Assembly: GCA_020072965.1 (NCBI GenBank) | Contig: JAIQFY010000010.1 | Span: 108,243 to 172,242 of the forward strand | Reading direction: 5' to 3' | DNA length: 64,000 bases | Source: Terriglobia bacterium | GTDB taxonomy: Bacteria > Acidobacteriota > Terriglobia > JAIQFV01 | Shown here: positions 7,467-61,389 of the stretch, one piece after another | Layout: each line of letters begins with the position of its first letter | How positions within the stretch are numbered: position 1 is the first letter of the stretch | Notes under the pieces: generated by a model | Seen by the model: the letters and a program-made list of their open reading frames with translations, nothing else | Database searches by the model: none | Told to the model about the DNA's origin: nothing | Program-made: the position numbers and the translations under genes

Positions 7467-7688
7467 TGGGCATTATTGTAACAATTTTTCGGATTTCTTT
7501 CAGTCAACCCCGGAAATGAAGCCAGAAGCCTCATCTAAATCGGTTTGATCACCCTTCCCCCGGGGACACGACGGCTGGAAAAAACTGAAGACAGGGGATA
7601 TAATTGCGAATGAATCGCACATTAAGGGCAATCACGTGGAGGGCGTTTATGACGACTCCATGCGCAAGTTCAGGAGGGCGTAATCGAA

Positions 7689-8351
7689 ATGTCTCTGTTA
7701 GGTGAGAAGGAACAGGTAATCGTAAGCGAGCAATTTCAAAGGCTCGAGAATCCTGTGAGGATGATCCACTTTACCCAGGGCTTGATGTGTGACACCTGTC
7801 CCGAGACCCAGCGCCTCCTCGAAGACCTGGCATCCCTGTCTGACAAGGTCACCCTTGAGGTCCATAACTTTGCGATTGAACAAGAACTGGCGGCGCAGTT
7901 TCAGGTGGCTCGAGTCCCTGCAACTGTTATACAGACAGAGAAGGATTTTGGAATTCGGCTTTACGGGTTGCCTTCGGGTTACGAATTTGCTTCTCTATTG
8001 CACGCCATCCTGGCCGTGTCCCGTTCCGCCACCGAGTTGTCGGAGGAATCAAAGACCCTACTCCGATCCGTTACCACTCCTACTCACATCCAGGTGTTTG
8101 TGACCCCCACCTGACCGTATTGCCCCGCGGCCGTGAAGCTCGCGTACGAACTGGCAATTGAGAACGACTACATCACCTCGGACATGGTGGAAGTTTCAGA
8201 ATATCCGGATCTGATCCGCAAGTATCAGGTTCGAGGAGTTCCGAAAACCGTGGTGAACGATACCGTTGAGTTTGTTGGCGCTCTTCCGGAAGCAGAGTTT
8301 GTCGCGCAGGTTCTAAGAGGGGTAATCCCGGCCGGTTTGGAAAACAGGTAG
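7689..8351 (+). CDS. Two-domain thioredoxin-fold protein disulfide oxidoreductase (PDO/glutaredoxin-like), predicted selenoprotein with in-frame TGA (Sec) at 8112..8114 giving a UPYC active site
   Basis: Track ORFs 7689..8114 and 8133..8351 are in the same frame and separated only by TGA. Reading through gives ...VFVTPT-U-PYCPAAVKLAYELA..., i.e. a CPYC-type redox motif with TGA at the first Cys. The first domain has a CDTC motif. A SECIS-like hairpin follows. Confidence 0.6.
8115..8160 (+). promoter_or_regulatory. Candidate bacterial SECIS hairpin downstream of UGA 8112
   Basis: ccguaUUGCCcCGCGgccgugaagcuCGCGuacgaacuGGCAA: nested stems with a GU-containing apical loop about 15-25 nt after UGA. 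Not validated by folding. Confidence 0.3.
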
Positions 8352-8533: not shown

Positions 8534-10444
8534 CTATTCCCCCGCAGGCTGTTCAGCCCCCGGAAATTGAGAGCCGAAGGCGGTCACCAAGGGCAGACCG
8601 GGAAGTGTCTCCAATGGCATAACCTCCTGTCTAACCTCGTCGTACCCATCTGGGAGATCGCCATTGTCTGGACGAAAATACCGCCAATAGTTGGGACGCA
8701 CGGAAGCGATGAGCTCTTTTCGCGTCTTGGTTTTGAGCGGTTTTCCGATGTAGATCTTGCCCATCCGCTCCAGGATCTTTTCCGGGATGGCGCCCGCAAA
8801 CATGAACAAAGGGTATTTGAAATTCGGCCCATTCAGCTTCCGTAATTTGACAAGCCACATGATCAGCGAACCAAGGCGCCAGACAGTCGGGGCCCACCAG
8901 CTGTAATTGCCCGGACGCACGTTCATCTTCCAGCACTTCATCATGAGTTGCCATTGCAGAGGGGAGAGCTGGCGCGTTTCGGTCACGCCCTGCTTATCTG
9001 CCATGCGCGTATCATGCAAAGGGGTAAAAATCGAAGGGATGAGGAAGGCGAAGACGTGACGGCGCTCCATCTCATAAACCAGATCGAGCGTCGCTTTGAC
9101 ATCCTCGTCCGTTTCGCCGGGGTTGCCCACAATCAGAGTCATGGCGGGAAACCAGTTGTTCTCGTTCAAGACCCGAAGCCCTTCCAGGATAATGCTCGGC
9201 CAGTCTTCGATGGGAAAAGGGACCGCTTTGCTCGGCATGATCTGTTTCGCCATGCGGACTGATCCTGTTTCCAAGCCAATCAAAGGAATCAGTGCTTTCT
9301 TCTGGGGATGACTGCTGAGGTACGGGAAATGGATGGGGCTCTTGGGCAAAAGGAGATTAGAGAGTTCTCTAATCAAGGTCGGATCGACGACGGCCGGGGC
9401 AATAGTGCAATGACTCAGCAGATGATGCTCGACCCCGGGCGTGTTGACGACCTCGCTAAAGAGGCCGACCAATGCTTCCCGATTCGGGAAGTAGAAAGGG
9501 ACATTGGTGTGAACCTGTCCCCAGATGAACATATCCTCGGTTGCAAGCGAGATTTGCTTGTTTCCGTTCCGGACATTCGCCCGGACTGATTTCAAGATGT
9601 TCTCCTTGGGTAGGTCGATTTGCGGATTCAAATCGGGAACACAAAACTGACATCTTCGCCCGCAGCCGGTGGTCATTTCGACGACACCGAAGGTCGTGCG
9701 CTTTTCAGGCGCAAGAATGGTCGAACCGTCCTTCGGATGTGCAACATCGACCTGCCGGGGGAGGGATTCTCCTCTGACGGCCTGATCGAATAACCTCACC
9801 GTATCTGCTGATTCGCTCCGCCCTTCGATGACGCAGTCAATGCCAAGCTCCTCGTATGAATCCGTCTTAACGACTTGCCAGCCGCCTGATCCACCCACAA
9901 TAACCTTGAATTGGTCCCGATAGGGACTTGCTTTGATCTTTGCAAAAAGGGCTCGCGCATAGTGGGAGTTGATGGGCATTTTCGAAGATCCGAACATCGA
10001 GGTATAGACCCCTGCTGCAAACGTCACTCCCAGGGGATTGTGAGTGGAGACCGCGACGACGCGGGTGTTTGGCCCGATGAATTTTTCCAAGTCGTCAGGG
10101 TAGCAAGCGACAACCTCATCCGGTCCGTAGCTCCGAAGCAAAGAAGCTTCAACCAGTCGCACACCGGCTGGCATGGTACGGGCGGAACCATCCTCGTTGT
10201 GCTCCACCTCGCGCCAATGGGGGTACTTGTCGTTAAGGAACCGCTCCATCCAAATGGGTAAAGATGCCATCATCATCTGAATAAAATAGCCGGCATGGTC
10301 AATGGTCTCAGACAGAGGCGCCGATAAGACAATCAGCCTCCCCCCATCGATCGGGGCCGATGATTGAAGGACTTGCGCCACATTGTGATGGGACGTTTCG
10401 AGCGGTATTCCATTTCCATTGCTCTTCCGAGTTTTTAGACCCAT
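8534..10444 (-). CDS. B12-binding domain radical SAM protein (with long C-terminal extension)
   Basis: Radical SAM CxxxCxxC motif TTGCGRRCQFCV. N-terminal Rossmann-like B12-binding region. Start proposed at ATG 10444 with a strong GGGAGGAG RBS; the track ORF extends to 10498. Confidence 0.75.
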   Translation of the reverse strand: MGLKTRKSNGNGIPLETSHHNVAQVLQSSAPIDGGRLIVLSAPLSETIDHAGYFIQMMMASLPIWMERFLNDKYPHWREVEHNEDGSARTMPAGVRLVEASLLRSYGPDEVVACYPDDLEKFIGPNTRVVAVSTHNPLGVTFAAGVYTSMFGSSKMPINSHYARALFAKIKASPYRDQFKVIVGGSGGWQVVKTDSYEELGIDCVIEGRSESADTVRLFDQAVRGESLPRQVDVAHPKDGSTILAPEKRTTFGVVEMTTGCGRRCQFCVPDLNPQIDLPKENILKSVRANVRNGNKQISLATEDMFIWGQVHTNVPFYFPNREALVGLFSEVVNTPGVEHHLLSHCTIAPAVVDPTLIRELSNLLLPKSPIHFPYLSSHPQKKALIPLIGLETGSVRMAKQIMPSKAVPFPIEDWPSIILEGLRVLNENNWFPAMTLIVGNPGETDEDVKATLDLVYEMERRHVFAFLIPSIFTPLHDTRMADKQGVTETRQLSPLQWQLMMKCWKMNVRPGNYSWWAPTVWRLGSLIMWLVKLRKLNGPNFKYPLFMFAGAIPEKILERMGKIYIGKPLKTKTRKELIASVRPNYWRYFRPDNGDLPDGYDEVRQEVMPLETLPGLPLVTAFGSQFPGAEQPAGE

Positions 10445-11175
10445 TTCTTCTCCTCCCGGAGATGGATTTCTGCGTACACCCGGTTCACCGGCTCTCACTT
10501 AATGAAAAACCAGGACACAGTCAAACAGGACTTCCCTCGAAATTACCCGAGGGAACGGCGTAATTCCTGTAGGAATTGACGAATCTTACATTCTTTTCCG
10601 GGTGAAAGCACGGAAAATTCGAGTATTGGGGTTTTTCTCGGGAGTAGATAACGCATTGAGTTCTGAGGAATTCGGATCGTAAAACGGTACGGTCGTCAGG
10701 GGCGTGCAAATAAGAAGCGGGTCCCGCATCGTCCTTGTAGATTCATGTGGGGCTCGATGCTGGTTGTCTTGCCTGACCCAGTATTCCTCCATTTCGAAGA
10801 AGATTCACTCGCTCCGAGATTCTGCAGCCGTCTTCTTGAACCTCCCAATCAAATGAACTTCGGAAAGTCACTAAAACACCGTCTTGAATTGCGATTGTGG
10901 AACTTGGAGAGCCTTCGCAGTAGTCAGAATCTTGAAGACAAAGGCCACAAACAAAGGCCACAAAAGGATGCGCCGGCATTTGGATCTGGAGTTTCTTTCA
11001 CAGCGACGTGGCTTGACTCCCACCCGAATCTTTTGTTACCTTGAGCAACGGTCAAAGGCATTCGGAGGCCTCCCCCCATTTCATTGTCCTCGAGCGCGAC
11101 GATGCTGAATCTTAAAGTCATGACATGCAAGCTTCCAAGGGCTTTGAACAATCACACTAATTTCAGGGTGGCCCA

Positions 11176-32090: not shown

Positions 32091-32528
32091 ATGTTGTCAA
32101 TCGGAGAGAAGGCCCCCGACTTCAAAGTGAAGACCCATGAGGGAAAGGAACTTTCGCTGGGCCAGTTTGCGGGGAGCAAAGTGGTCCTGTGGTTCTACCC
32201 CAAGGCTGACACCCCCGGCTGAACCAACGAAGGCAAAGGATTCCGTGATCGAATCCGAGAGTATGACGCAAAGAACATGAAGATCCTTGGAATCAGTTTT
32301 GATACGGTCGAGGAAAATGCCGCGTTTGCAAAGAAATTTCAGTTTCCCTTCCCCCTATTGTGCGACACTGACCGGAAAATAGGATTGGCTTATGGGGCCT
32401 GCGAATCGGTTCGGGATGAACACGCCAAGCGAATTTCATATGTGATTGGTGAAGACGGTAACATCCTTCAAGCCTATCCCAAAGTCGATGCCGCGCGCCA
32501 TCCGCAAGAAGTGCTGGAGAAGCTCTAG
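32091..32528 (+). CDS. Peroxiredoxin PrxQ/Bcp family, predicted selenoprotein with TGA (Sec) at 32220..32222 replacing the peroxidatic Cys
   Basis: Manual translation from ATG 32091 (AGGAGGGA RBS): MLSIGEKAPDFKVKTHEGKELSLGQFAGSKVVLWFYPKADTPG-U-TNEGKGFRDRIREYDAKNMKILGISFD... continues in frame into track ORF 32277..32528. FYPKADTPGxT is the Prx active-site motif with TGA at the Cp position. A possible resolving Cys is retained (LLCD, ACES). Confidence 0.7.
32238..32256 (+). promoter_or_regulatory. Candidate SECIS hairpin for Prx UGA 32220
   Basis: GGAUUC-cgugauc-GAAUCC stem-loop starting 15 nt after UGA. Apical loop contains GU. Confidence 0.35.
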
Positions 32529-54002: not shown

Positions 54003-54992
54003 ATGACATCGACCCTGTATGACGTCGGCATTATTGGCGCAGGACCCGCAGGCTTGGCCTGTGGCATCGAAGCCACTAAATTAGAGCTCAGCCACGTCAT
54101 CATCGAGAAAGGTTGCCTCGTCAATTCCCTCGCCCATTATCCGATCAACATGGTGTTCTTTACGACCCCTGAACTGCTCGAAATCGGGGGCTTGCCCTTG
54201 ATATCCGCGCACGAGAAGCCCACCCGACTGGAAGGCCTGAAGTACTACCGGCGTGCCGTGGAGACATATCACTTGAACGTCCATCAGTACGAAAGAGTGG
54301 AGGGTGTGTCGGGGTTCAATGGAGACTTTAGTATTCGCACCCGGGAACGCCTGGGTCAGAGTAGAAGTTACAAAGCCCGCAAACTGATCGTGGCGACAGG
54401 GTATTACGACAACCCGAACCGGCTGGGGATCCCCGGCGAAGACCTTCCAAAGGTGTCGCATTACTACACTGAAGCGCATCCCTATTACGACCAGGAGGTG
54501 GCCGTGATCGGGGGGCGCAACTCCGCGATTGAGACGGCCTTGGATTTATTTCGAAATGATTCCCACGTGACCCTGATCTACCGCGGCGCGGAGTTCAGCA
54601 ACTCGGTCAAGTATTGGATCAAGCCGGACATAGAAAACCGCGTCAAGCGAGGTGAAATCAAGGTGCATTTTAATACTCAGGTGATCGCCATCAAGCCGGA
54701 CGCTGTCGTCATCCAGAATTCCAATGGGAAAGTGGAGCTCAAAAATGACTTTGTGTTTGCCTTGACGGGCTACCGGCCAGACGAATCCTTCTTGCGATCG
54801 ATGGGGATTGAATTGAGTCCCATCGATTTGAAACCCACTCTCCATCCGGAATCATTCGAAACAAACGTTCCGGGCGTCCACATGGCGGGATCGATTGTCG
54901 CCGGGCTCAAGAACAACGAGATCTTCATCGAAAACGGACGATTCCACGGAAAAGTAATCCTCCAATCCATCGCCCGTTCACTGCGAGGCTGA
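54003..54992 (+). CDS. YpdA-family FAD/NAD(P)-binding putative (bacilli)thiol-disulfide reductase (thioredoxin-reductase-like, no CxxC)
   Basis: 329 aa. N-terminal GIIGAGPAGL dinucleotide motif. Second Rossmann GGRNSAIETALDL. Overall YpdA/TrxB-like architecture. Confidence 0.65.
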   Translation: MTSTLYDVGIIGAGPAGLACGIEATKLELSHVIIEKGCLVNSLAHYPINMVFFTTPELLEIGGLPLISAHEKPTRLEGLKYYRRAVETYHLNVHQYERVEGVSGFNGDFSIRTRERLGQSRSYKARKLIVATGYYDNPNRLGIPGEDLPKVSHYYTEAHPYYDQEVAVIGGRNSAIETALDLFRNDSHVTLIYRGAEFSNSVKYWIKPDIENRVKRGEIKVHFNTQVIAIKPDAVVIQNSNGKVELKNDFVFALTGYRPDESFLRSMGIELSPIDLKPTLHPESFETNVPGVHMAGSIVAGLKNNEIFIENGRFHGKVILQSIARSLRG

Positions 54993-54995
54993 CCC

Positions 54996-55445
54996 ATGAC
55001 TCTACAGGAACGCATCCAAAAAGACATTCAGGACGCCATGCGCGCCAAGGATTCACTGCGGCTGGATGCCCTGCGCATGATGAAAGCCGCCGTTAAGAAC
55101 AAAGAGGTCGAGAAAATCAAGCCGCTCGATGAGAATGAGTGTCTTCAGGTGTTCGCAACGTTGATCAAGCAACGTAAAGATTCCATTGAGCAGTTCACCA
55201 AGGGTGGACGACTGGAGTTGGCCGCCAAGGAAGCGGCTGAAATCAAAATCATCGAAGAGTACATGCCCGCTGCAGCAACCGCCGAGGAAATGGAGACGGC
55301 GGTTGCGGACGCGATTTCGGAAACGGGAGCTTCTACTCTAAAAGACATGGGTGCGGTGATGAAGATGGCGATGGCGAAGTTCGCGGGAAAACCTGTGGAT
55401 GGAAAAGCCGTGAGTGAGTTGGTGCGCCGAAGGCTGGCCTCCTGA
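54996..55445 (+). CDS. GatB/YqeY domain protein
   Basis: 149 aa. Typical YqeY sequence (RLDALRMMKAAVKNKEVE...EIKIIEEYMP). Confidence 0.8.
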   Translation: MTLQERIQKDIQDAMRAKDSLRLDALRMMKAAVKNKEVEKIKPLDENECLQVFATLIKQRKDSIEQFTKGGRLELAAKEAAEIKIIEEYMPAAATAEEMETAVADAISETGASTLKDMGAVMKMAMAKFAGKPVDGKAVSELVRRRLAS

Positions 55446-59280: not shown

Positions 59281-61389
59281 TTACGCTTCCTCCTCTTCCT
59301 CCTCCTTACCAGCCCTTGCGGCCTTTGCGGCTTCTATGATCTTCTGGGATATCTGAGCCGGGACGATATCGTAATGTGAGAATTCCATGGCGTAGGTGCC
59401 CCGGCCCTGTGTTGCTGATGTGAGGACAGGCGCGTAGGTCAACATCTCGGCCATGGGAACCTGGGCCTTAATAATCTGGTTGCCTGCACGAGAATCCATG
59501 CCCTGGATACGTCCCCGGCGTGAATTCAGGTCCCCCATCAAATCTCCCGCATACTGCTCGGGAGCAATGATCTCCACATTCATAATGGGTTCGAGCAGGA
59601 CGGGCCTGGCCTGCTCCATCGCCTTCTTGAAGGCCAGTGAGCCGGCAATCTTAAAAGCCAGTTCCGACGAGTCGACGTCGTGATAGGAGCCGTCGTAAAG
59701 GATGGTCCTGAAATCTACGACCGGATAGCCGGCTAGAAAACCGCGGGAGGCAGCGTCGATGATCCCCTTCTCCACCGCCGGGATGAAATTGCGGGGGATG
59801 GATCCTCCGAAGATCTCATTCACAAACTCGAAGCCCTGTCCCCGGGGGAGCGGTTCCATCTTGATTTTGCAGTCTCCGTATTGCCCGTGACCTCCGGTCT
59901 GCTTCTTGTGACGGCCCTGCGCATCCGCTTTCCCGACGACGGTCTCCCGGTAGGGTACTTTGGGGGTTTTCAACTTGACTTCCACCTGATAACGCCGTTT
60001 CAGCCGGGACACGATGATTTCGATGTGTTGCTGACCCGTGCCCGAAAGCAGCAATTCATGGGTTTGCGGATCGCGGCTGAATCGGAGGGCAAGATCTTCC
60101 TCAAGGATTCTGTGGATGGCGGTACCGATGCGGTCTTCATCCTGACGCGACTTCGGTTCGATCGCAAACGCGATGGCGGGCTCAGGGAATTTGACCGGCC
60201 GGTAATAAATCGGATGCGCTTTGTCCCCCAAGGAGTCTCCGGTCAAGGTATCTTTTAGTTTGGCGACCGCCCCAATATCTCCAGCCCTCAACTCGGGAAC
60301 CGCAGTTGTATTTTTTCCCTGGAGCACGCCAATGTGGGCCATCTTTTCGGACGATCCGCGGGTAAAGTTATGGACGGTGGCATCGTTCTTCAGAATTCCC
60401 GAGTACACCCGAAAGTAGGTGACCCGGCCTGCAAACGGGTCGGCCACTGTCTTGAAGACAAACATCGAAAGCGGCTCGTCTTCCGCCACCTTGCGGATGA
60501 TCTCCTCTTCCCATTGAGGCGATACATGCCCCACCACGGGTCGCGCGTTGGCCGCGGGCATGTAGGCGACAACCGCATCAAGAAGATTTTGAGCACCGAT
60601 ATTGTAAAATCCCGATGCACACAGGACGGGCACGATGCGGCGCTCCAGGATGGCCTGTATCAGACCCTTTTCAAGATCCTCTACCGGCAAGGTTCCCTTT
60701 TCAAAAAACTCCTCCATCAGGGCATCGTTCCCCTCGGCAACCTGTTCCACAAGCGCCTCGTGCGCCTTTTGCGCGGCATCCTGCAATTCCGGCGGGATGG
60801 CACTCTCCGTCGCCTTGCCGCTGCCTGAGGTGTCATAAAGGTAAGCCTTCATACAGATGAGATCGATGACTCCTCGAAACACTTTTTCCACGCCGATGGG
60901 AAGTTGAATGGCCACCGGAGTGCGTCCAAAATTCTGCCGGATCGATTCCAGGGAGCGCTCAAAACTGGCGCGCTCCCGATCGAGTTTGTTCATGATGATG
61001 AGGCGGGGGAGGTTGAATTCATCGGCAAACGACCATACCTTTTCGGTCTGCACTTCCACGCCGGCCACGGCATCAACGACCACCACTGCCCCATCAGCCA
61101 CCCGCAACGCCGCCCGCGTGTCGTTGATGAAGAAGCCATACCCCGGGGTGTCGAGGAAGTTGATCTTCGTCTTGTTCCATTCCGCGTAGGCGAGGGAAGT
61201 ACCGATGGTAATCTTCCGCTCGATTTCCTCTTCGTCATAGTCAGTGACCGTGGTCCCGTCGTCGACGCGACCCAGCCGGTTGACCATTCCCGAAGTAAAT
61301 AAAAGCCCGGAGACAATTGAGGTCTTGCCTGAACTTCCATGTCCCACAAAACAGAGATTGCGAATGCTTCCCCCCTCGTAGACCTTCAC
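59281..61389 (-). CDS. Elongation factor G paralog (EF-G2-like) with non-canonical switch II and poly-Glu C-terminus
   Basis: 702 aa, five-domain EF-G architecture. P-loop GHGSSGKTS. G3 DTPGYGFF (Tyr instead of the catalytic His of DxPGH). NKLD. Tail KEEEEEEA. Confidence 0.8.
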   Translation of the reverse strand: MKVYEGGSIRNLCFVGHGSSGKTSIVSGLLFTSGMVNRLGRVDDGTTVTDYDEEEIERKITIGTSLAYAEWNKTKINFLDTPGYGFFINDTRAALRVADGAVVVVDAVAGVEVQTEKVWSFADEFNLPRLIIMNKLDRERASFERSLESIRQNFGRTPVAIQLPIGVEKVFRGVIDLICMKAYLYDTSGSGKATESAIPPELQDAAQKAHEALVEQVAEGNDALMEEFFEKGTLPVEDLEKGLIQAILERRIVPVLCASGFYNIGAQNLLDAVVAYMPAANARPVVGHVSPQWEEEIIRKVAEDEPLSMFVFKTVADPFAGRVTYFRVYSGILKNDATVHNFTRGSSEKMAHIGVLQGKNTTAVPELRAGDIGAVAKLKDTLTGDSLGDKAHPIYYRPVKFPEPAIAFAIEPKSRQDEDRIGTAIHRILEEDLALRFSRDPQTHELLLSGTGQQHIEIIVSRLKRRYQVEVKLKTPKVPYRETVVGKADAQGRHKKQTGGHGQYGDCKIKMEPLPRGQGFEFVNEIFGGSIPRNFIPAVEKGIIDAASRGFLAGYPVVDFRTILYDGSYHDVDSSELAFKIAGSLAFKKAMEQARPVLLEPIMNVEIIAPEQYAGDLMGDLNSRRGRIQGMDSRAGNQIIKAQVPMAEMLTYAPVLTSATQGRGTYAMEFSHYDIVPAQISQKIIEAAKAARAGKEEEEEEA

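Follow-up and report, generated by a model that had tools for sequence, protein, structure and literature searches.

A protein disulfide oxidoreductase gene of a Terriglobia bacterium with an in-frame TGA predicted to encode selenocysteine

We describe a gene from an uncultured bacterium of the Acidobacteriia/Terriglobia that is annotated as a truncated thioredoxin-like gene and that, in our assessment, very probably encodes a two-domain selenoprotein of the protein disulfide oxidoreductase (PDO) family. It occupies positions 7689-8351 of the 64-kb stretch of DNA that we analysed, which we refer to as the window. We are highly confident that these positions constitute one gene in which UGA specifies selenocysteine (Sec) at an active site. 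This conclusion is based on observations of the reading frame, the family membership and the alignment of the Sec codon with Cys, on a TGA and a hairpin that are both conserved, and on purifying selection past the TGA. From these we infer that Sec is actually inserted and that SelB binds the mRNA; the redox partners put forward below are likewise inferred.

Gene layout and protein family

Direct translation of the plus strand gives an ORF (7689-8114) that starts with the ATG at 7689 and consists of 141 codons closed by the TGA at 8112-8114. Past this TGA, the same frame continues for 78 further codons (PYCPAAVKLAYELAIEND..., beginning PYCPAAV) up to a TAG at 8349-8351, and the translated context around the TGA is ...THIQVFVTPT-*-PYCPAAVKLAYELA. 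The ORF list for the window breaks the locus in two, i.e., 7689-8114 (141 aa) and 8133-8351 (72 aa, with a GTG start). Public gene calls contain the same split: the public record (P0001), a 141-aa "thioredoxin family protein", is exactly the 141-aa product, and in relatives' gene calls the C-terminal part is given as a separate 72-aa (or 66-aa) gene.

An earlier, sequence-only reading of this DNA had proposed that two same-frame ORFs are parted by one TGA, that read-through gives TPT-U-... in a protein whose first domain carries CDTC, and that an ORF caller would truncate or split the gene. These proposals are confirmed: the frame runs on to the TAG, the translated context agrees exactly, CDTC is present as C34-D-T-C37, and both the ORF list and the public calls divide the gene. 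The features of the locus, together with those of a second TGA-containing gene discussed below, are listed in Table 1.

Table 1. Positions, within the window, of features of the PDO-family gene and of a second gene with an in-frame TGA
Feature	Position	Strand	Details
Full CDS, PDO-family predicted selenoprotein, 220 residues	7689..8351	+	141 codons, UGA=Sec142, 78 codons, TAG
Promoter-like TGGAAA-17 nt-TATAAT	7576..7604	+	10/12 consensus positions; ~85 nt 5' of the start codon; consensus match alone
Shine-Dalgarno-like AGGAGG	7672..7677	+	11 nt ahead of ATG 7689; read from the sequence
N-terminal redox motif C34-D-T-C37, first thioredoxin-fold unit	7788..7799	+	C34 and C37 invariant in 20/20 aligned sequences
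In-frame TGA read as selenocysteine (residue 142; predicted)	8112..8114	+	First position of the C-terminal U-P-Y-C motif (8112-8123)
SECIS-like hairpin CGCGGC [CGUGAA] GC-U-CGCG	8126..8144	+	6 bp, bulged U8140, C8126-G8144
Mechanical 72-aa ORF, GTG start	8133..8351	+	C-terminal part of the PDO protein, no separate gene
BCP/PrxQ peroxiredoxin, 145 residues	32092-32528		In-frame TGA 32220-32222; PF00578 117.6 bits across the TGA

In the Terriglobia clade, the gene is flanked by a transglutaminase-like/TPR gene upstream and a radical-SAM gene downstream, both on the opposite strand. Because of this orientation, we read the PDO gene as monocistronic. Given that it is apparently monocistronic, its redox partners are proposed by analogy alone.

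When U is read as C, the product matches the NCBIfam model TIGR02187 ("PDO_seleno_TRX") with a score of 260.6 bits against a curated cutoff of 185 (E=8e-78), and the match spans residues 6-210, corresponding to profile positions 2-208 of 209. The Pfam family Thioredoxin_3 also matches, in two stretches. Full-length alignments to PDOs of solved structure (1A8L, 1J08, 2AYT/2YWM and 2HLS) have E-values from 2.9e-49 to 4.7e-25 and support, at the level of sequence, the presence of two thioredoxin-fold units in one chain of ~220 residues. The Pyrococcus furiosus PDO (1A8L) aligns over residues 3-210 (E=2.9e-49), with the TGA opposite the first Cys of its CPYC. The N-terminal domain of AhpF (1HYU, 1ZYN) aligns more weakly (E=1e-7 to 2e-9). 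The possibility that the product is AhpF was also considered and rejected: the product is below the cutoffs of TIGR03140 (84.5 versus 502.9 bits) and TIGR03143 (102.5 versus 687.65), and the chain ends at residue 220. Since the product stops there and TIGR03140 is far below its cutoff, the protein is a homolog of AhpF's N-terminal domain, and AhpF itself is excluded.

A database search returned 7,377 homologs. In all 19 of 19 full-length homologs (45-55% identity), the column of the TGA holds Cys, within an almost invariant VTPT-C-PYCP, and C145 is invariant in the homolog alignment alongside C34 and C37. The sequence-only reading had located the TGA at the first Cys of the CxxC in the second domain, and homologs indeed have Cys, and no gap, at this position. 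Its prediction of a UPYC selenoprotein is supported by this Cys column, by the conserved TGA, by the hairpin and by the name of TIGR02187.

Conservation of the TGA and of a downstream hairpin

The same TGA and the same gene order are found with three 141-aa orthologs (P0011, P0029 and P0057, at 87, 84 and 80% identity, respectively), and the TGA is kept in the Terriglobia relatives L001, L007, L009 and L067. The assemblies carrying it are independent, as they derive from several samples and from different sources (ENA, NCBI, JGI and Logan). Based on the Nei-Gojobori method and clade relatives, dN/dS is 0.04-0.37 in the 78 codons after the TGA, versus 0.07-0.18 before it. These low downstream values indicate that the part after the TGA is under protein-level selection in this frame. 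In the clade alignment of the codons between the TGA and the GTG at 8133, the PYC codons differ only synonymously, and the PAA codons are invariant because they are inside the frozen SECIS stretch. Elsewhere in the window, TGA is an ordinary stop: it ends 15 of 38 long, non-overlapping ORFs, so the codon is not reassigned genome-wide.

We also scanned one genome per GTDB species (the species representative) for DNA that encodes T-P-T-TGA-P-Y-C-P. Among the 120 matches listed, at least ~115 are further family genes with the same TGA, while ~3-5 matches are not true; in the true family genes, the TGA is flanked on either side by long in-frame coding sequence. Among the matches listed, carriers of Sec-PDO are mostly Chloroflexota (Anaerolineae, Chloroflexia and Dehalococcoidia), and further carriers are Acidobacteriota (Terriglobia, Blastocatellia, Vicinamibacteria and Solibacteraceae) and Methylomirabilota/Rokuibacteriota. 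These listed matches also contain Bacillota, among them the cultured Sulfobacillus thermotolerans Kr1 (CP019454.1), Alicyclobacillus mengziensis S30H14 (NZ_CP071182.1) and A. tolerans BL-1, as well as Ignavibacteria, Dormiibacterota, Gemmatimonadota and Nitrospiraceae.

The SECIS-like hairpin downstream of the TGA (Table 1) has a 6-nt apical loop (8132-8137, CGUGAA), in which G8133 and U8134 are at positions 2 and 3. The UGA is separated from the loop by 17 nt, and the GU is 21-22 nt after the UGA. Folded as an isolated 25-mer, the hairpin has an energy of -7.7 kcal/mol and accounts for 82% of the ensemble. The published bSECIS model, as given in a passage of PMC13188914, specifies an apical loop of 3-9 nt, an upper stem of 4-16 bp, 16-37 nt between UGA and loop, and an MFE of at most -7.5 kcal/mol. 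The same passage gives, for the loop, a G at position 1 or 2 that is often followed by G or U. The window's hairpin lies within these constraints, with an energy that is barely under the threshold and a 6-bp stem that is split 2+4 by the bulge. The window's hairpin thus resembles the bSECISearch consensus (Zhang & Gladyshev 2005, as summarised in PMC13188914) in the 6-nt loop, the G followed by U, the 17-nt spacing and the energy of -7.7 kcal/mol. However, its stem of 2 bp, a bulged U and 4 bp differs from this consensus in that there is no continuous upper stem of at least 4 bp.

Taken as a single sequence, the region is not unusually stable: folding 8112-8175 and shorter pieces gave z-scores of -0.34 to -0.82 relative to dinucleotide shuffles, which are non-significant. 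A search of Rfam gave no match to a SECIS model, with zero matches at the gathering threshold and only chance-level matches at E<=10. Since the z-scores of the lone sequence are non-significant, the significance of the hairpin comes from comparative evidence alone.

Within the clade, this evidence consists of a lack of change. When codons for the same amino acid are compared in five Terriglobia sequences, synonymous variation is found at 1 of 7 in the hairpin versus 88 of 116 outside (Fisher p=0.0018). A stretch of 23 nt (TGCCCCGCGGCCGTGAAGCTCGC) is identical in the window, L001, L007 and L009, and in L067 a single base of the loop is changed. Covariation is absent from the Terriglobia clade itself, in which the hairpin is simply invariant.

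Beyond the clade, we compared the Sec genes with 117 Cys-form homologs from metagenomes that have the motif TPT-C-PYCP. As the measure, we used the best single hairpin with its loop 20-27 nt downstream of the codon's first base. Hairpin energies average -10.4 kcal/mol for the 115 Sec genes among the matches listed versus -6.4 for the 117 Cys genes (Mann-Whitney p=5e-19), a gap that is present in every shared GC bin. The loop contains GU in 90% of Sec genes versus 41% of Cys genes. Among the 115 Sec genes from the matches listed, the loop starts at +20 in 68 and at +25 in 27. Of the Sec set, 81% have energies of -8 or lower; the window's own hairpin belongs to its weak tail and is within the range of the Cys controls.

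The largest structural class has covariation in a stem pair (G-C in 17, A-U in 8 and C-G in 1), and the observed score was reached in 0 of 500 shuffles. Overall, the hairpin occurs in at least three registers or classes, i.e., with loops of 5 or 6 nt at +20 and of 3 nt at +25. The classes GCGAGC[CGUGNN]GCUCGC, CCGGGC[CGUGC]GCCUGG and GGCCA[GGU]UGGCC lie over differing amino-acid sequences. Several sequence classes and registers over different amino acids are what is expected from selection on the shape of an RNA, not on its sequence. Other analyses detected less. RNAalifold, applied to an ungapped alignment of 117 sequences, found almost no structure, and the longest uninterrupted stem anywhere is a statistic that does not separate Sec genes from Cys genes. 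A competing stem near TGC-CCN codons is common to both sets. Relative to synonymous-codon shuffles, the MFE is shifted modestly (mean z of -0.71 versus -0.06 in a control region).

The sequence-only reading had also anticipated a stem-loop with a GU-containing loop within ~30 nt of the TGA, and had advised folding it and comparing it with bacterial SECIS constraints. A hairpin of this description is present, it agrees with the constraints at -7.7 kcal/mol and its synonymous sites are frozen, although it is weak when judged alone (z of -0.34 to -0.82).

Selenocysteine decoding and alternative explanations

Family and tRNA scans found no selA, selB, selD or tRNA-Sec (selC) within the 64-kb window. 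The family scans of 37 other window ORFs recognized no sel gene, and the tRNA scans, which covered the window and 29 loci, recognized no tRNA-Sec. An EF-G at 59281-61389 was considered as a potential selB and rejected, because it has only a weak G-domain match (45.8 bits versus a cutoff of 242). In two Chloroflexota loci (L037 and L066), a selA homolog is located ~5 kb or less from the Sec-PDO gene (tblastn E=2e-91 and 8e-85, respectively; the query was an E. coli SelA sequence).

A scan of the window for in-frame TGAs with coding-like codon usage on both sides yielded three sites (8112, 32220-32222 and 54990). The TGA at 54990 was rejected as a recoded site, as it is an ordinary stop and the next gene's ATG follows in frame. 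The remaining site is in a BCP/PrxQ peroxiredoxin gene (Table 1), where the TGA takes the place of the peroxidatic Cys in FYPKADTPG-C-T, a position that is Cys in 12 of 12 homologs (59-65% identity). It is followed by the hairpin GGAUUC[CGUGAUC]GAAUCC, whose loop starts 21 nt past the UGA. That the window has two independent genes with TGA at a catalytic Cys and a CGUGA-type loop behind it is an argument for the presence of the Sec-decoding trait. These data suggest that this Terriglobia lineage uses UGA for Sec and invests selenium in cytoplasmic thiol-redox/antioxidant enzymes, namely a Sec-PDO and a Sec-peroxiredoxin.

It is important to consider whether the locus might instead be a pseudogene, or whether a Cys codon (TGC or TGT) was turned into TGA by an error in sequencing or assembly, in which case the gene would be dead or a Cys form. 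Only one base change parts TGA from TGC or TGT, and the public annotation does present a truncated 141-aa protein. However, an error or decay at this one site is at odds with the same TGA in independent assemblies (ENA, NCBI, JGI and Logan), in orthologs at 80-87% identity and, among the matches listed, in at least ~115 further species, and also with purifying selection that continues in frame downstream (dN/dS of 0.04-0.37). We therefore regard this explanation as effectively refuted and assign it a negligible probability. A true split would mean that the TGA is a real stop and that the 141-aa unit and the 72-aa unit starting at GTG 8133 are two polypeptides, as the two genes in the gene-caller output and the GTG start 18 nt past the TGA would have it. 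Yet the 72-aa product would be without any of the U/CxxC motif, and the clade alignment has only synonymous differences in the PYC codons and none in the PAA codons; the start of the 72-aa ORF past the motif and this codon conservation make a split gene not credible. By eye, no Shine-Dalgarno motif is evident ahead of 8133. A split also offers no reason for a stop to be exactly at the catalytic Cys column, and does not account for the fact that GU-loop hairpins are commoner in TGA forms than in Cys forms. We consider it exceedingly improbable.

A further alternative is that the UGA is indeed read through but without Sec, either by near-cognate insertion of Trp or Cys or because UGA is reassigned throughout the lineage. 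The lack of detected Sec machinery in the 64-kb window and the thermodynamically unremarkable local hairpin are in keeping with this idea. However, reassignment conflicts with the 15 of 38 long window ORFs that TGA terminates, and the location of the codon on a redox Cys is the signature of Cys/Sec pairs. Moreover, the sole other candidate TGA that is flanked on both sides by coding sequence, that of the BCP peroxiredoxin, is likewise on a redox Cys, the synonymous sites of the hairpin are frozen, and selA is close to the gene in the relatives with the same TGA in which it was found (L037 and L066). Read-through without Sec is thus very unlikely, and decoding of the UGA as Sec is the reading that we adopt in what follows.

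Predicted function and comparison with known systems

As a selenoprotein, the product would be a 220-residue cytoplasmic protein disulfide oxidoreductase of the PDO / AhpF-N-terminal-domain family (TIGR02187), with two predicted thioredoxin-fold units that have CDTC in the first and U-P-Y-C in the second. We expect that the UGA at 8112-8114 would be decoded as Sec by SelB and Sec-tRNA(Sec), and that the mRNA hairpin at 8126-8144 would recruit SelB, presenting G8133 and U8134 in its apical loop. At thioredoxin-fold CxxC sites in general, the N-terminal Cys is the attacking nucleophile. Sec would stand in for this Cys in the C-terminal CxxC and, if it acts likewise, may form a selenenylsulfide with C145 or with a substrate as the catalytic intermediate.

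Characterised family members offer an analogy for the electron flow. An NAD(P)H-dependent, thioredoxin-reductase-like flavoenzyme might keep the PDO reduced, and BCP-type or OsmC-type thiol peroxidases, or other disulfide substrates, might receive electrons from the PDO. In AhpF, the homologous N-terminal domain relays electrons to AhpC. In Sulfolobus solfataricus, electrons pass from NADPH via thioredoxin reductase to PDO and from there to the peroxiredoxins Bcp1, Bcp3 and Bcp4, which are thereby regenerated; the thiol-transferase activity of the PDO is carried by its C-terminal CXXC (PMC7465337).

The surroundings of Sec-PDO genes in Chloroflexota also bear on function. Downstream on the same strand there are often genes for OsmC-like proteins (at least 18 loci) and for a TlpA-like redoxin with a WCPPC motif (at least 15 loci), and the preceding gene resembles an ECF-type sigma factor in at least 21 loci; these identities were assigned by eye from motifs, with no HMM. 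Such neighbours are in keeping with a function under peroxide or disulfide stress.

A YpdA-family flavoprotein disulfide reductase is encoded at 54003-54992 of the window (TIGR04018, 447.7 bits). This reductase is a possible candidate for the electron donor to the PDO. The Sec-BCP gene (32092-32528) is 24 kb from the Sec-PDO gene, and one could imagine that the two proteins form a relay, with selenium at both thiol-transfer steps, in an aerobic soil acidobacterium. Electrons would then pass from NAD(P)H to a TrxR-like flavoenzyme, possibly the YpdA-family protein at 54003-54992, and on to PDO(U142), BCP(U44) and peroxide. The PDO, BCP and YpdA-family genes do not share an operon, and we consider this relay unlikely. 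If it did exist, it would be a selenium version of the Sulfolobus NADPH/thioredoxin reductase/PDO/Bcp system, and the many Sec-PDO genes of Chloroflexota, Acidobacteriota and Methylomirabilota would point to an Se-dependent antioxidant pathway that is widespread among soil bacteria.

Among known systems, the PDOs of archaea and thermophiles (P. furiosus 1A8L, P. horikoshii 1J08, A. aeolicus 2AYT/2YWM, A. pernix 2HLS and that of S. solfataricus) resemble the window's protein in having two thioredoxin-fold units in ~220-230 residues, an N-terminal CxxC and a C-terminal CPYC. Unlike it, they have Cys where the window's protein is predicted to have Sec, and they are from (hyper)thermophiles. In addition, 1A8L has an insertion after the "AIEN" segment that the window's protein does not have. 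For archaeal members, disulfide reductase, oxidase or isomerase activity with reduction by a thioredoxin reductase is described, as is the reduction of Bcp peroxiredoxins by the thioredoxin reductase/PDO pair of S. solfataricus (PMC7465337), whereas the activity of the window's protein is putative.

The N-terminal domain of AhpF (1HYU, 1ZYN and 4O5Q) is similar in its homologous double thioredoxin fold, whose second unit has a redox-active CxxC and shuttles electrons from the thioredoxin-reductase-like module to the peroxiredoxin. However, the window's protein is a stand-alone chain of 220 residues without a FAD/NAD(P)H domain, and it differs from AhpF in that both of its units have a CxxC-type motif.

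The closest comparison is with the known seleno-PDOs. The PDO family is named as a UxxC selenoprotein in the literature (PMC1794560, PMC9312934 and PMC13188914), and passages of PMC9312934 and PMC13188914 attribute seleno-PDO to Kryukov & Gladyshev 2004. Organisms for which it has been reported are Carboxydothermus hydrogenoformans and Symbiobacterium thermophilum (PMC1794560), and a 2026 review classes the family among selenoproteins "predicted with high confidence" (PMC13188914). The current name of NCBI's TIGR02187 model itself contains "seleno". Because the family was already known to include selenoproteins, our result is an annotation correction and not a discovery. The public record is wrong in giving a truncated 141-aa "thioredoxin family protein" where the correct product is predicted to be a 220-residue selenoprotein, and the same annotation error recurs in more than 100 species-level genomes among the matches listed.

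The window's gene differs from known seleno-PDO genes in its host, which is an uncultured Acidobacteriia/Terriglobia MAG as opposed to a thermophilic anaerobic Firmicute or Symbiobacterium, and from most known family members in its bulged and weaker SECIS stem. It shares with known seleno-PDOs the HMM family, a UxxC in which a single predicted Sec per protein replaces the first Cys of the C-terminal CPYC, and a SECIS hairpin that directly follows the UGA inside the coding region. It is thus an additional, mis-annotated member of a known selenoprotein family, for which both the family and the recoding mechanism are already established.

A candidate second selenoprotein gene

The window probably contains a second selenoprotein gene beside that of the selenocysteine-containing protein disulfide oxidoreductase (Sec-PDO), namely one encoding a BCP/PrxQ peroxiredoxin. 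Its in-frame TGA occupies the peroxidatic Cys column of the motif FYPKADTPG-C-T, a column that holds Cys in all homologs compared (12/12). A hairpin, GGAUUC[CGUGAUC]GAAUCC, lies 3' of this codon, with its loop starting 21 nt past the UGA; its energy of -6.6 to -7.1 kcal/mol slightly misses the -7.5 kcal/mol threshold of the published bacterial SECIS model. The protein has Lys in place of the usual resolving Cys, five residues after the peroxidatic position. Gene callers would overlook such a gene or cut it short.

Another TGA, at 54990, was considered as a read-through site and rejected as a mimic only: it is the stop of a YpdA-family gene, followed by the in-frame ATG of a YqeY-like gene.

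Coordinates of the features (window numbering unless a locus is named)
Feature	Location	Strand	Basis or detail
BCP/PrxQ peroxiredoxin, 145 residues	32092-32528	+	PF00578, 117.6 bits; in-frame TGA 32220-32222
Putative bacillithiol disulfide reductase, YpdA family	54003-54992	+	TIGR04018, 447.7 bits vs cutoff 339.9
YqeY-like gene	54996-55445		ATG in frame with TGA 54990
Large radical-SAM protein, 636-654 aa across clade	8534-10498	-	Pfam Radical_SAM, 35 bits over ~50 residues
Radical-SAM counterparts in relatives	L001:10856-12766; L007:3707-5617; also L067
FG-GAP/VCBS-repeat protein, 1220 aa	35965-39627	-	PF13517, 368 bits, 12 repeats
FG-GAP/VCBS-repeat protein, 887 aa	39717-42380	-	PF13517, 181 bits, 5 repeats
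selA homolog, Anaerolineaceae	L037:4394-5716	-	tblastn
selA homolog, Leptolinea	L066:5496-6722	-	tblastn
Example neighbours of Sec-PDO, Chloroflexota	L082 +227..+656; L048 +284..+872; L106 -1600..-991		offsets from TGA

Genes accompanying Sec-PDO

The YpdA-family protein, a TrxR-like flavoenzyme, could be the electron donor of Sec-PDO; its gene is 46 kb from the Sec-PDO gene and shares no operon with it. Across the whole Terriglobia clade, the conserved convergent neighbour of Sec-PDO encodes a large protein whose match to Pfam Radical_SAM is faint or partial. Elsewhere in the window, two very large FG-GAP/VCBS-repeat genes adjoin each other.

Among the matches listed in our scan of species-representative genomes for TPT-TGA-PYCP, Chloroflexota loci have recurrent neighbours, whose identities are by-eye motif assignments. 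An ECF-type sigma factor gene precedes Sec-PDO at 21 loci, and at 18 loci Sec-PDO is followed, in the same orientation, by a gene for an OsmC-like protein. A TlpA-like redoxin that is anchored in the membrane and carries WCPPC is a neighbour at 15 loci. In two Chloroflexota genomes (L037 and L066) the Sec-PDO gene lies within ~5 kb of a selA homolog, detected by tblastn with an E. coli SelA query at 41-45% identity (E=2e-91 and 8e-85).

Two loci with the TGA are atypical. In L097, whose TGA lies on the minus strand (reverse-complement index 1499), the stretch VHLQVLVTPT-TGA-PYCPRAVRLA is followed by 477 codons of unrelated sequence, and L068 has only 37 family-like codons before the TGA. Frameshift, decay or misassembly may account for these two copies.

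Breadth of the PDO family

Our homolog search yielded 7,377 family proteins, and the named top homologs come from metagenome-assembled genomes of Acidobacteriota, Calditrichota, Zixibacteria, WOR-3, Latescibacteria and Xenobia. Many of the source organisms are probably mesophiles. If this is true, the PDO family is far wider than is held by a 2020 review, according to which PDOs are known only from thermophiles (PMC7465337).
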